Shown here one piece after another: positions 38,232-43,684 of a stretch of 64,000 nucleotides of DNA. The stretch is from positions 3,808,001 through 3,872,000 of the forward strand of contig OY730476.1 in the NCBI GenBank assembly GCA_963422735.1, in the 5' to 3' direction. The translations under genes were made by a program, and so were the position numbers. Position 1 is the first letter of the stretch. Each line of letters begins with the position of its first letter. The notes under the pieces were generated by a model that ran no database searches, was not told the origin of the DNA, and saw only the letters and a list, made by a program, of their open reading frames with translations. The stretch is from Candidatus Latescibacterota bacterium. GTDB taxonomy: Bacteria; Latescibacterota; UBA2968; UBA8231.

Positions 38232-38960
38232 ATGTTCTGTTTTATTTTTATATTGGCTTACCCTGGCGCCCTTTATGCAGTACATTCAGGTTTATACTTG
38301 ATAGGTAGCTGGGTGCTATCCGAAAAAACGATGGATGCAACTTTGGATCGTTGCGATTTTGTCATACCTTTGGTATCTCTGATCGGTGCTCTAATCTTAA
38401 TTTTGAACGTGTGCGATTTTGCAATCCACATTTTTACGTCGGCCTTTACATGGCCTATATGGTTTGGTTTCCCAACGTATTTATCGCTCGGAGTTACAAT
38501 TTTTATTAGTATAGGTGGGGGTATGGCCTTTTATTGTACAGAGATCATTGCAGCACGAGCTTGGTTAAAACTGAGGATGGGAAACAAGCCAATAGTAAAA
38601 CACTGGATGTTTGGAGAGACCAAGCGCGTTGTCAGACAGGGACAAAAATTACCTATAGGTCTGTTACTGAGTTGCATATTTGGCGAAGTCATTCTAGAGG
38701 AGGTACTGTGGAGAGGTTACTTGGCTTCTTATGCAACCGATGTCTTAAATATGCCTGTACGATACGCAATCATCATCTCGTCCCTCGCATTCGGAATGAA
38801 TCATATAGCCTATGGCTTGGCAAATGTGATCTCTAAAACCCTACTTGGTGTAATTTTAAGTCTTATGTATCTCACCTCTGATAGCCTTTTGCCATGCATA
38901 TTGTGCCATCAAGTCTTCAACCTTATGGTTTTTAAAATCCGCATCGAATGGAAATCATGA
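38232..38960 (+). CDS. CPBP/Abi (CAAX-type, SagE-like) intramembrane protease
   Basis: EEVLWRGY, FGMNH and HQVFN motifs in a polytopic protein. Confidence 0.92.
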   Translation: MFCFIFILAYPGALYAVHSGLYLIGSWVLSEKTMDATLDRCDFVIPLVSLIGALILILNVCDFAIHIFTSAFTWPIWFGFPTYLSLGVTIFISIGGGMAFYCTEIIAARAWLKLRMGNKPIVKHWMFGETKRVVRQGQKLPIGLLLSCIFGEVILEEVLWRGYLASYATDVLNMPVRYAIIISSLAFGMNHIAYGLANVISKTLLGVILSLMYLTSDSLLPCILCHQVFNLMVFKIRIEWKS

Positions 38961-40636
38961 CTTCAACTTCGAGTGCCTCATCTCCAGCCAGTGGCTGTCG
39001 AGAACAAACACCCATTCTGCAGATAAATGCCTTGTGCAGAACCTACGGCGAACTCGTCGCTGTTCAAAATGCCAGTTTTGCCGTATATCCGCAACAAGTT
39101 TTTTGTCTGGTAGGACCCAATGGAGCGGGTAAAACATCTATCATAGATTGCATTGTAGGTTTAAAAAAGCCCGACTCTGGAGACATTCACTTATTGGGAG
39201 AAAGCATCCCCGATCTGAGACGGCGCAAGGACATACGCAGTCGAATCGGCATCCAATTTCAAGAAGATTCTCTCTACAATGATATTCAGGTTAAAGAGGC
39301 GTTACGCCTTTATGCAAGCATGTATCGGAGTCCTACTGATCCTAATGATTTAATCGACATTTTTGATTTGCAACGTCAGCAGAAAACAGCCTACAAAGAC
39401 TTGTCGGGAGGAGAAAAGCGAAGGCTGCTCATTGCCATCGCCTTAATAGGTAATCCTGAGATCCTCATCCTCGACGAGCCTTCCAGCAACCTCGATCCAC
39501 ATTTACGTCGGCAACTTTGGGACGTTCTGAACCAGTACCGCCGTCAAGGCCTCACCATTGTCATGACCACCCACAACATGCAGGAAGCCCAGCAGTACAG
39601 CGATGTGATCTGCGTGATTGACAAGGGTCAAATTATTGCCTCTGGTTCAGTGCCACAACTGCTCGAAAAGTTTCAGCTAAACCTCAAAGTAGAGATAGAA
39701 ACCAAAGTCGATCCCGAAACCCTATCAGACTGTTTTGGAGTAACCCATATCGATGCCAATGCTCAAGGTGTGTGCATATATGGCAAGGATGAAGTGTTTA
39801 GGAACGCTATTATAGACCGTCTTAACAGTTTGAAAATACATCAATTTTCCGTAAAAACCGCCGATCTTGAAGATGTGTACCTATTCGCCACAGGAAGCCG
39901 ATATATGCGCTATACTCAAAAAAACGCAAAAAATGATCAGAGCACCGAATCTGAGGCTCCTTTTGTGAAAGGAAAAGAGCTTCTTCAGCAAGCGATTGAT
40001 GCCTCCGACCCCAATCAATTATATAAGGCGCAGAAACTGTTTGAAGGGGCTCGCCAAGATGGTAATCACGAGGTGTTTGCACTGTATTACCTAGCTTTGT
40101 GCGAATACCGCCTTGCCACGCTCTTTGCGTCCGCGCCAGACGAACAAATCCAGTGCATCAACCGAACCATAGAGCATCTCAAAAGTGCCATTGAATTGGA
40201 AGATAACTTCAGCGACGCACATGCCCTCTTGGCCAAGGCATATAGTCAAAAGCTCGGCCTGAATCCTCACTTGGGCATGGTACTTGGCCCTGAGACTAAA
40301 AGAGTTCTTGAAAAATCCAAGCGACTCGATGGCAATAATCCTCGTGTCGTCTTAACAGATGGAATGAGCGACTATTACACTCCTGCTGTATTCGGCGGCG
40401 ACAAGAAGCGGGCCATTTCCAAGCTGGAGCAGGCCCTTGAGCTATTCGCCAAAGAGGAAATTCGCGATCCCTTTCAGCCCTCTTGGGGTTACGACGAAGC
40501 CTGTGCTCAATTGGGTATCATGCGTCAAGAGGCCGGCGACCTCGAAGGGGCAAGGGAAGCTTTTGTCAAAGCACTGACCGTGAACCCCAACAACGGCTGG
40601 GTAAAAAACCACTTATTGCCGCGATTGGAGTGTTAG
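38948..40636 (+). CDS. ABC transporter ATPase fused to a C-terminal TPR domain
   Basis: GPNGAGKT, LSGGEK, ILDEP, TTH, LEDVYL; then a ~220-aa helical-repeat domain paralogous to 42899..43684, in one open frame. Confidence 0.9.
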   Translation: MEIMTSTSSASSPASGCREQTPILQINALCRTYGELVAVQNASFAVYPQQVFCLVGPNGAGKTSIIDCIVGLKKPDSGDIHLLGESIPDLRRRKDIRSRIGIQFQEDSLYNDIQVKEALRLYASMYRSPTDPNDLIDIFDLQRQQKTAYKDLSGGEKRRLLIAIALIGNPEILILDEPSSNLDPHLRRQLWDVLNQYRRQGLTIVMTTHNMQEAQQYSDVICVIDKGQIIASGSVPQLLEKFQLNLKVEIETKVDPETLSDCFGVTHIDANAQGVCIYGKDEVFRNAIIDRLNSLKIHQFSVKTADLEDVYLFATGSRYMRYTQKNAKNDQSTESEAPFVKGKELLQQAIDASDPNQLYKAQKLFEGARQDGNHEVFALYYLALCEYRLATLFASAPDEQIQCINRTIEHLKSAIELEDNFSDAHALLAKAYSQKLGLNPHLGMVLGPETKRVLEKSKRLDGNNPRVVLTDGMSDYYTPAVFGGDKKRAISKLEQALELFAKEEIRDPFQPSWGYDEACAQLGIMRQEAGDLEGAREAFVKALTVNPNNGWVKNHLLPRLEC

Positions 40637-40642
40637 TACAAA

Positions 40643-42877: not shown

Positions 42878-42898
42878 CCTTAACCAAAGGGGCCATTT

Positions 42899-43684
42899 AT
42901 GCAACGCTTTCTGCTCTCACTCGTTTTCATGTCCTCGATCGCATATCCCGCCTTCGCCCAATCAGCCGATAGTCTTCTCGTCAGTGGAAAACAGATGCTG
43001 CAAGCCGGTGAAAATGTGAGCGACCTCGACTCTATGTATGCAGCCAGAGCGATGTTCGAGCGCACCCTAGCCGACACGGGTCTGGCTGCATGGAGCCACT
43101 ACTACATCGCCTTGGCCGATTACCGCATCGTCGATCTCCTATTAGCCGAGGGCGAAAAAAATAAAGACGCGGCTTCTGAGCACCTCAAAGCCACTGTCGA
43201 GCATTTGAAAAAGGCTACCGAGCTCGACCCGCAAGCGGCCGAAGCCTATGCTCTGCTATCGAGCGCGTACGGACGACAAATCGGCCTGAGTCCTATGAAA
43301 AGCATGTTCTTGGGGCCCAAAATTGGAAAGGCCATCCAAAAAGCCAAGCGACTCGCACCCGACAATCCGCGCGTGGCGCTGAGTGCGGCCATCAGCGACT
43401 TTAATACCCCCAAAATGTTTGGTGGAAGCAAAGAAGAGGGCCTGCAAGGGTTCCAGCGCGCCGCCGAGCTCTTTGCCCAAGAAAAGCCGACCGACCCCAT
43501 CCAACCTATATGGGGACACAGCCGCACTTACGCTTGGCTCGGCATCGCTTACCAGGATCGAGGTGAGCTGGAGCTGGCGCGCGTAGCCTTTGAAAAAGCG
43601 CTTGAAATCAATCCGGGTTTTGGTTGGGTCAAGTTCGTGCTGCTGCCCGAATTGGAAAAAGCCAATTCACCAGATGCACCGTGA
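42899..43684 (+). CDS. Exported TPR protein
   Basis: Signal peptide ending AFA-Q; TPR helices; NPRV, TPKMFGG, PIWG, INPGFGWVK. Confidence 0.85.
   Translation: MQRFLLSLVFMSSIAYPAFAQSADSLLVSGKQMLQAGENVSDLDSMYAARAMFERTLADTGLAAWSHYYIALADYRIVDLLLAEGEKNKDAASEHLKATVEHLKKATELDPQAAEAYALLSSAYGRQIGLSPMKSMFLGPKIGKAIQKAKRLAPDNPRVALSAAISDFNTPKMFGGSKEEGLQGFQRAAELFAQEKPTDPIQPIWGHSRTYAWLGIAYQDRGELELARVAFEKALEINPGFGWVKFVLLPELEKANSPDAP

Follow-up and report, generated by a model that had tools for sequence, protein, structure and literature searches.

Here we describe a row of genes in a 64,000-nucleotide stretch of DNA from a Candidatus Latescibacterota bacterium (contig OY730476.1, positions 3,808,001 to 3,872,000), which we call the window. 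We particularly focus on a protein in which an ATP-binding cassette (ABC) ATPase is fused to a domain of the HusA haemophore-like family. The row is co-directional on the + strand, from a precursor peptide gene at 32650 to 43684 (Table 1), and is best read as two joined units. The first one (about 32.6 to 40.6 kb, of low GC) has the composition of a linear azole peptide (LAP) cluster in the style of streptolysin S and microcin B17, together with an ABC-2 pump of the DrrAB/McbEF type. The second one comprises a TonB-dependent transporter (TBDT), which starts 6 nt past the stop codon of the fusion, and an exported HusA-like protein. Another HusA-family domain appears to have been acquired at the C-terminus of the pump ATPase, and it would therefore stand in the cytoplasm. 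The GC content at third codon positions (GC3) is 0.40-0.50 in the LAP genes and the pump, 0.58 in the fused domain and 0.60-0.64 in the TBDT and secreted copy, and 0.75-0.79 in the flanking core genes.

Table 1. Features of the locus, in positions of the window.
Feature	Position	Strand	Basis or remark
Precursor peptide, 38 aa	32650..32766	+	Leader MKLEIVSKPFDGYMSPAAK, core G8-C5-IIIFFC; list of open reading frames (ORFs)
ThiF/SagC-like cyclodehydratase partner	33019..34131	+	Pfam ThiF E 4.9e-9; NCBIfam TIGR03603 (SagC family) E 3.3e-13, under cut-off
SagB-related half protein	34156..34971	+	Weak TIGR03605, E 6.5e-5; present in every full cluster
SagB-type azoline dehydrogenase (nitroreductase fold)	34975..35967	+	TIGR03605 135 bits, cut-off 78.4; Pfam Nitroreductase E 2.9e-21
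ABC-2 permease	35960..36742	+	Pfam ABC2_membrane E 6e-22
YcaO cyclodehydratase	36752..38215	+	Pfam YcaO E 1.1e-46; TIGR03604 (SagD family) 208 bits, cut-off 219
CPBP (Rce1-like) membrane protease	38232..38960	+	Pfam Rce1-like E 1.7e-18
ABC ATPase-HusA-like fusion, 562 aa	38948..40636	+	
DrrA-type ABC ATPase, fusion residues 1-322, end ...LEDVYLFATGSRYMRY	38948..39913	+	ABC_tran, DrrA1-3_C; TIGR01188 drrA E 1e-57, under cut-off
Hydrophilic linker, fusion residues 323-337	39914..39958	+	
HusA-like domain, predicted cytoplasmic, fusion residues 338-562	39959..40636	+	phmmer against PDB, AlphaFold2 (AF2), Foldseek
TBDT with N-terminal CarboxypepD_reg domain	40643..42877	+	Pfam; placed as HusB is to HusA
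Exported HusA-like protein, 261 aa, predicted signal peptide	42899..43684	+	phmmer, profile A1, AF2/Foldseek

The ABC ATPase part of the fusion is complete. In Pfam, ABC_tran covers residues 40-179 (E 1.6e-29) and DrrA1-3_C residues 247-312, and every catalytic motif is present, with the Walker A at residue 56, the LSGG signature at 152, the Walker B at 172 and the H-loop at 208. Together with the partner ABC-2 permease, these features are those of a DrrA-type ABC-2 ATPase; TIGR01188 scores 195.7 bits against a subfamily cut-off of 312. The best NCBIfam models are those of DrrA, NodI and the lantibiotic-protection ABC proteins, all of them exporter families, and this membership suggests that the pump works in the direction of export. 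The reading frame is unbroken over 39800-40120, where the other two frames are stop-rich. The linker upstream of the fused domain is hydrophilic and without membrane segment; its sequence is variable and its length differs by 2 residues among three families, and the frame is retained. An unfused metagenomic relative (L097) terminates in ...LEDVFMALTGREMRE-stop at the place where the ATPase of the fusion ends (...LEDVYLFATGSRYMRY). At this end, GGAAG or GGGAG stands 6-12 nt upstream of the Met (39905-39907) of a conserved RYMRY motif in 14/14 loci checked. An internal start at this Met could possibly yield a free cytoplasmic HusA-like protein, and the upstream letters may merely reflect Thr-Gly-Ser/Arg codons.

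A first-pass annotation of this DNA, made by a model from the letters, had noticed that the fused domain and the protein at 42899 are paralogous, and this holds. Indeed, fusion residues 339-561 align with residues 27-253 of the secreted protein with 96/227 identities (42%), 62% positives and 4 gap positions (BLASTP, E 6e-61), and all the motifs that it had quoted fall in register. Its placement of one copy in the cytoplasm and of the other outside also agrees with what we see, with no signal on the fused copy and a hydrophobic N-terminus on the secreted one, MQRFLLSLVFMSSIAYPAFA|QS, which, judged by eye, is a Sec signal peptide. Its assignment of both to a peptide-binding tetratricopeptide repeat (TPR) fold has to be revised, as sequence and Foldseek comparisons point to the HusA haemophore-like family. 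In phmmer searches of the PDB, the fused domain matches 6bqs_A with an E of 1e-11 (query 36-196 on chain 39-196 of 201) and the secreted copy with 3.8e-5, and profile A1, built from 12 sequences of fused and secreted copies, reaches 7.2e-14; the homology extends over most of the chain. This entry, titled "hypothetical protein PG_2227", corresponds to HusA, a haemophore-like protein of Porphyromonas gingivalis whose neighbour PG2226 is the TonB-dependent receptor HusB (described in PMC11681262). As reported in PMC6173696, HusA is a nine-helix TPR-like superhelix whose hydrophobic groove takes haem, and metal-free porphyrins more tightly, with no iron coordination; mutagenesis identified L123, V124, W130 and Y164 as contributing to haem binding.

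The identity of the two copies to HusA is 21-25%, and they have in common with it the motifs YY.A.C..R, NPR, YTPA.FGG.K and P.WG. Across the fused and secreted copies of A1, 46 columns are invariant, among them residues of stretches aligned to the HusA groove loops (M136/G139; T170 P171 G175 G176 K178). The AF2 models are all helical (pLDDT, the model's per-residue confidence, 96 for the fused domain and 89 for the secreted copy), and both agree with the fold expected of the HusA family, in which paired helices wind into a right-handed superhelix that has a concave groove. In Foldseek, HusA has the top template-modelling (TM) score among the matches listed for the secreted copy (0.80 by target, 0.63 by query). 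For the fused domain it has the lowest E-value (TM 0.73 by target, 0.65 by query), and the generic TPR protein 2pl2 scores 0.75, so the fold alone is not specific to HusA. Taking the sequence and the models together, we assign both domains to the HusA haemophore-like family rather than to the generic peptide-binding TPR proteins. A TatT-like identity, a comparison that the first-pass annotation had put forward, was rejected: Pfam TAtT (PF16811) stays sub-threshold on the secreted copy (14.2 bits, cut-off 26.5) and gives no match on the fused domain, and no TatT structure is found among the Foldseek matches listed for either copy. The family itself is large (529 representatives at E <= 1e-30 in a profile search, and 3194 hits at E <= 1e-10), and the source names seen for its members are "hypothetical protein" or "tetratricopeptide repeat protein". 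It appears to be almost always exported, as 136 of the 149 representatives examined have a hydrophobic N-terminus; the fused copy, which has none, would thus be the exception.

Pfam detects only generic TPR repeats on both domains, and HusA has itself been likened to TPR and 14-3-3 folds (PMC6173696), which gives some ground to a simpler explanation. According to it, the fused domain would be an ordinary TPR module acting as a protein-docking scaffold, which binds the leader of the precursor or tethers ThiF, YcaO and SagB at the exporter, the insoluble product being then made there; the first-pass annotation had thought along such lines. We consider this quite improbable, since the domain retains HusA-family motifs beyond generic TPR features, since most of the family would be exported and would have no cytoplasmic partner to dock, and since the SagC-like protein already has a weak match of the leader-binding type (TIGR03882, E 8.8e-4, under cut-off).

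The fusion itself could be suspected of being an assembly error, or a neutral and functionless accident of island insertion. It is true that GC climbs across the fused domain and that the right end of one cassette replacement, detailed below, lies within it. We nevertheless regard such an origin as hardly credible. The junction (39890-39970), which the first-pass annotation had singled out for verification, is spanned with zero differences by contigs of two other sequencing runs from different studies, X2 (32498-40401) and X6 (39257-40535). In our survey of 168 Latescibacterota genomes, the fusion is intact in 24, which belong to three families: 21 of the 31 genomes of the genus (including that of the window), G029 (family f2), and G085 and G097 (family f4). 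A separate genome search returned full-length matches in 16/24 other genomes of the genus and in one genome of another family. Each of the 24 carriers also has the secreted copy, so the fear of a one-off, with homologous clusters lacking the TBDT and TPR genes, does not materialise. Moreover, the median ratios of nonsynonymous to synonymous substitution (dN/dS; 18 species, 153 pairs) are 0.125 in the fused domain and 0.129 in the ATPase, with the TBDT at 0.168 and the secreted copy at 0.242, and the fused domain is under purifying selection. In a 90%-identity protein collection, 99 clusters are 58-100% identical to the fused domain; the majority are about 555-563 aa long and contain ABC_tran. 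At the 50%-identity level, only 1 of the best 150 representatives is an ABC fusion, which means that this architecture is restricted to one narrow clade. For P0142, which is the representative nearest to the fused clade and has no hydrophobic N-terminus, no longer relatives were found at E <= 1e-5 among 3051 candidates, which is weak evidence against any further fusion. In L034 (11673-11948), part of the fused domain (query residues 108-199) is repeated in tandem.

The first unit contains what defines a LAP cluster, also termed TOMM (thiazole/oxazole-modified microcin), namely a YcaO protein, a SagC-like partner, a SagB dehydrogenase and a Cys-rich precursor. Precursors were recovered in 18/20 loci scanned, none being found in L025 and L089. 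They have a conserved leader (MKL[RKT][IV][VE]S) followed by hypervariable cores with runs of 3-9 consecutive Cys, some of them of the CCCCHCHCC type. Once cyclodehydrated and oxidised, these runs would become contiguous thiazoles, so the predicted product is flat, conjugated and hydrophobic. The eight-azole macrocycle telomestatin is porphyrin-sized, and a run of eight thiazole rings has roughly its curvature. A product with these predicted properties makes a fold with a porphyrin groove a plausible binder. Ahead of the precursor lies another, conserved Cys-rich stretch, ...AAG.C.H.CCVAFQPATK... (32521-32649), which is in frame with the precursor in the window. It recurs at this position within L022-L041, in 13/20 of the scanned loci, where the downstream frames differ. 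The left junction of the cassette swap described below (32527) coincides with the start of this stretch, which could encode a second short peptide or act as a nucleotide element under conservation. In two congeners, the YcaO match is split in two (L026 7769-9266 and L034 7813-9251), which may correspond to a frameshift.

We propose, with a probability of about 0.4, that the flat poly-thiazole product is the ligand of both HusA-like modules: the cytoplasmic one would feed or gate the pump, and the exported one would re-import the product together with the TBDT. Both modules would recognise one flat ligand, be it the mature poly-thiazole product itself or a metal complex of it. The cytoplasmic domain would capture the insoluble product at the pump, or gate the ATPase activity according to its ligand occupancy, and this capture or gating would lead to export and self-protection; the exported copy and the TBDT would return the compound to the periplasm, or sense it. 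What we show is homology, fold, topology as predicted from the sequence, conservation, selection and co-occurrence; the ligand and any hand-over between the parts are inferred, and so is the pump direction, from family membership. Re-uptake as with methanobactin would be plausible. A more general version of this proposal would see in the HusA fold a carrier of flat aromatic compounds at large, recruited twice for a poly-thiazole peptide shaped like an open porphyrin, with a haemophore-type relay across the inner membrane and a TBDT route used for re-uptake or for invading relatives; we hold this version for unlikely, although less so than any of the alternatives.

The TBDT and the secreted copy seem to constitute a Hus-like outer-membrane uptake module that existed before its association with the peptide cluster, resembling the HusB/HusA pair by the kind and the placement of its genes. 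The ORF at 40643-42877 has the barrel of a TonB-dependent receptor and a CarboxypepD_reg domain in Pfam, the Plug domain being sub-threshold (14.2 bits, cut-off 23.9). In several genomes and loci (L090, L091, L093, L094 and G027, from three other genera of the family and from family f2), the LAP-free module consists of four genes, which encode a protein of about 200 aa, an HTH_34/PadR-like regulator, the TBDT and the HusA-like protein. The first of these was taken as a membrane protein from a weak, sub-threshold DUF883_C match. The regulator and the 200-aa gene, absent from the window, sit between the fusion and the TBDT in L029-L032, which represent one subclade of the genus. A metagenome scan with profile A1 returned 78 loci, and among the closest 40 the same TBDT subfamily lies at <=1.5 kb from the HusA-like gene in 15. 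A gene for a LytS-type histidine kinase comes after the TBDT/HusA-like pair in two of the metagenome loci (L101 8839-9906, L105 9566-10717). A complex prediction between the mature TBDT (27-744) and the secreted copy (22-261) gave 0.29, 0.52 and 0.24 (median 0.29, mark 0.32) and has no bearing either way. As this module is of the uptake type and exists independently of the peptide cluster, the TolC-independent export through the TBDT imagined by the first-pass annotation is unlikely. Its statement that the cluster encodes no TolC-like or membrane-fusion protein was confirmed, none being found within the cluster by annotation and Pfam.

The joining of the two units is constant in the surveyed genomes. 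In 24/24 fusion-bearing genomes, the secreted copy lies 1.1-4.1 kb downstream on the same strand, and in 21/21 loci inspected the TBDT stands between the two, as a fragment in one of them (G029). The nine-gene order is complete in G085/L089, from another family, at 43-64% identity. Other loci are reduced. In G029/L038, the cluster is decayed: SagB, CPBP and TBDT are fragmentary, ThiF, the SagB-related half protein and YcaO have no match, and the permease, the fusion and the secreted copy are intact. In G097/L039, only the permease, the fusion, the TBDT and the secreted copy are found, at a different chromosomal site, and this four-gene remnant (L039 8-4546) is located just downstream of gyrB-gyrA-like genes and of an ORF which, judged from its sequence, is transposase-like. 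In the more distant congener G014 (L057 6826-15846), 9 kb of unrelated genes separate the topoisomerase gene from the DEAD helicase, with no LAP gene, TBDT or HusA-like gene in this interval, which indicates that genomes of the genus have the LAP-plus-Hus block either whole or not at all.

The LAP genes can also be replaced. In G006 and G145, the fusion is reduced to its last 68 residues. Upstream of this remnant in G006 (L014 1379-9489), the place of the LAP genes is taken by a different low-GC cassette, which encodes a transglutaminase/glycosyltransferase protein, a GT2-TPR protein, a C39 peptidase, a 101-aa protein, a CPBP protease and a Yip1 protein, and which looks like another bacteriocin-type cassette. 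A comparable exchange is visible in run X2, where a second contig joins 32527 to 40372 through 9587 other letters, at a depth of 86 against 303 for the LAP version. Both versions occur in one run, so two alternative cassettes coexist at this slot; the right junction of the swap (40372) falls inside the fused HusA-like domain.

A quick tree, built from 13 fused and 20 secreted rows together with one in two of the representatives of 230-340 aa, places the fused copies in one clade (SH-aLRT, an approximate likelihood-ratio branch support, 97) and the local secreted copies in another (99); the two do not group as sisters, and internally they branch in parallel. We also considered that the fused domain might be a native upstream husA gene truncated by the insertion of the island. 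This was rejected, as the LAP-free modules have the regulator and the membrane protein at that place and no HusA-like gene, and as the fused clade does not group as sister with the local secreted one. A third HusA-like gene, standing alone elsewhere in the genome, is found in some congeners (L015, L016, L021 and L058, in G021, G012, G006 and G024); it is 75-78% identical to the secreted copy and absent from the window genome. It nests in the secreted clade of the genus as a recent duplicate of the secreted copy, and no TBDT match was found in the 15-20 kb around it.

The independence of the Hus-like module is an argument for an explanation in which the peptide would not be the ligand. The TBDT and secreted copy would then serve in the uptake of porphyrin, haem or another native ligand, and the fused domain would bind this same ligand, either to regulate the pump according to the cytoplasmic porphyrin level or because the pump moves porphyrin. 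Indeed, the sole characterised member of the HusA family binds porphyrins (PMC6173696), and the stand-alone four-gene module has the same four kinds of components as the hus locus of P. gingivalis, where the regulator is HusC and the membrane protein HusD (as presented in PMC11681262). ABC-2 genes also adjoin TBDT/HusA-like pairs without genes for a ribosomally made peptide that is modified after translation (RiPP) in L097 and L108, and the TBDT and the secreted copy outlast the LAP replacement in G006. This explanation is the most serious of the alternatives, and we still find it doubtful. The fusion is confined to genomes with a present or decayed LAP cluster (24/24 in the survey, L039 being counted on shared gene order alone), the permease and ATPase genes are interleaved with the biosynthetic genes and have the same low GC3, and the nine-gene order is retained between families.

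The decayed and exchanged clusters bring to mind yet another scenario, that of a Trojan-horse bacteriocin. In this case, the poly-thiazole peptide would mimic the Hus ligand and enter relatives through their TBDT/HusA-like pair, and the pump and its cytoplasmic HusA-like trap would confer immunity, kept as orphan immunity after the loss of biosynthesis. An immunity role fits the fact that decayed clusters keep the pump: G029/L038 retains the permease and the fusion, along with the secreted copy, while its biosynthetic genes are fragmentary or unmatched, and the L039 remnant, which has no biosynthetic genes, retains these together with the TBDT. The scenario would also suit the hypervariable cores behind a conserved leader, the bacteriocin-like cassette with glycosyltransferases, C39 peptidase and CPBP protease in the slot of G006, and the presence of both cassettes in one sequencing run at depths of 303 and 86; HusA has moreover been exploited for the Trojan-horse delivery of porphyrin drugs (PMC6173696). 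However, pumps kept in decayed clusters could serve another substrate, and this model alone does not explain why the producer cluster is constantly joined to a TBDT module of its own. We thus consider it less probable than the uptake of a native ligand.

Several observations weigh against our own proposal that the peptide product is the ligand of both modules. The Hus-like module is found free of the LAP cluster in 35/59 of the genomes of the phylum bearing the HusA family, as well as in metagenomes, and it persists in G006, and probably in G145, after a different cassette replaced the LAP genes; from this it follows that the module has a function of its own. The association of a pump with HusA-like proteins may predate the LAP cluster or be independent of it, as unfused DrrA-type ABC-2 genes adjoin TBDT/HusA-like pairs without RiPP genes in 2/40 metagenome loci (L097, L108). 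The step in GC3 between the LAP genes and pump, the fused domain, and the TBDT and secreted copy also counts against the proposal. The residues that bind haem in HusA are not conserved as a set: W130 corresponds to an invariant Met, L123/V124 to Gly/Leu, and Y164 to a Tyr in the fused copy and an Asn in the secreted one, so that 3/4 contact residues are changed in the fused copy and 4/4 in the secreted copy. Finally, the fused and secreted clades not being sisters, the two copies may differ in ligand.

Most parts of the locus have known counterparts. The HusA/HusB system of P. gingivalis (PDB 6BQS/6CRL) is matched by the homology of both copies in sequence and fold, by the TBDT adjoining the exported copy and, in related genomes, by a regulator and a small membrane protein preceding the pair, components of the kinds described for HusC and HusD; it differs in that one copy is here without signal peptide and fused to a cytoplasmic ABC ATPase. 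Among the LAP (TOMM) clusters, streptolysin S (sagA-I) and microcin B17 (mcbA-G) are familiar examples, with which we recognise in common a Cys-rich precursor, a SagC-like ThiF protein, YcaO, SagB, a CPBP protease and an ABC-2 pump, but their counterpart here has uninterrupted runs of 3-9 Cys, a HusA-like domain on the pump ATPase and a constant TBDT/haemophore-like module. The ATPases of the ABC importers MetN, ModC and MalK have beta-rich C-terminal regulatory domains which bind the transported ligand or a regulator. The fusion resembles them in having a domain of ligand-binding type C-terminal to the nucleotide-binding domain, which could gate the ATPase by the cytoplasmic ligand level; in contrast, the transporter is here of the exporter (DrrA-like) type, and the added domain has an all-helical haemophore fold. 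Methanobactin and siderophores are taken up again through a TBDT, and their systems likewise combine a gene cluster for a metabolite, ribosomal or secondary, with an adjoining TBDT and soluble binding protein, but here this protein is HusA-like and not a classical periplasmic binding protein, and no inner-membrane importer is encoded.

Thus, the LAP cluster, the DrrA-type pump and the HusA/HusB-like pair are known as parts, and we found no description of a cytoplasmic HusA-family domain fused to an ABC ATPase, nor of a constant coupling between LAP and Hus genes. Among the papers listed in literature searches, and judged by title or abstract, none dealt with a link between HusA and YcaO or between a LAP cluster and TBDT/TPR genes, leaving aside a review of ThiF-like enzymes (PMC12596934) in which HusA and YcaO each occur once; where PMC9426513 treats the RiPP potential of Latescibacterota, the ABC-HusA/LAP architecture does not figure in its account. 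Within a large family labelled merely "TPR" or "hypothetical", HusA alone has been characterised, and the TBDT/TPR pair of Latescibacterota can now be re-annotated as a Hus-like module. If our proposal is correct, it suggests a new ligand class for the haemophore fold and, in its more general version, the first relay of haemophore type to serve a RiPP on the two sides of the inner membrane. It would also give a concrete idea of how insoluble flat RiPPs can be handled, through a selected cytoplasmic copy on the pump ATPase, and point to the TBDT and HusA-like receptor as a route that such peptides might use. If the ligand is porphyrin only, what is left of the finding is an ABC pump with an unusual regulatory domain.

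As for the surroundings of the row, a promoter and terminator scan of 32000-44000 returned 12 and 13 sites, against 12.0 and 12.0 expected by chance. No RNA data set was listed as covering 38900-43700. Short contigs of run X10, which is RNA only by guess, cover parts of 32300-32681, ThiF and the adjoining SagB-related gene, the TBDT and 43362-43765, and we draw nothing from them. The cluster has type IIA topoisomerase genes to its left and a DEAD-box helicase to its right, the topoisomerase B and A subunit genes (28352-32073, - strand) being divergent from the LAP cluster. Microcin B17, itself a LAP, targets gyrase; the location of both the LAP cluster and the L039 remnant near type IIA topoisomerase genes may be a coincidence.

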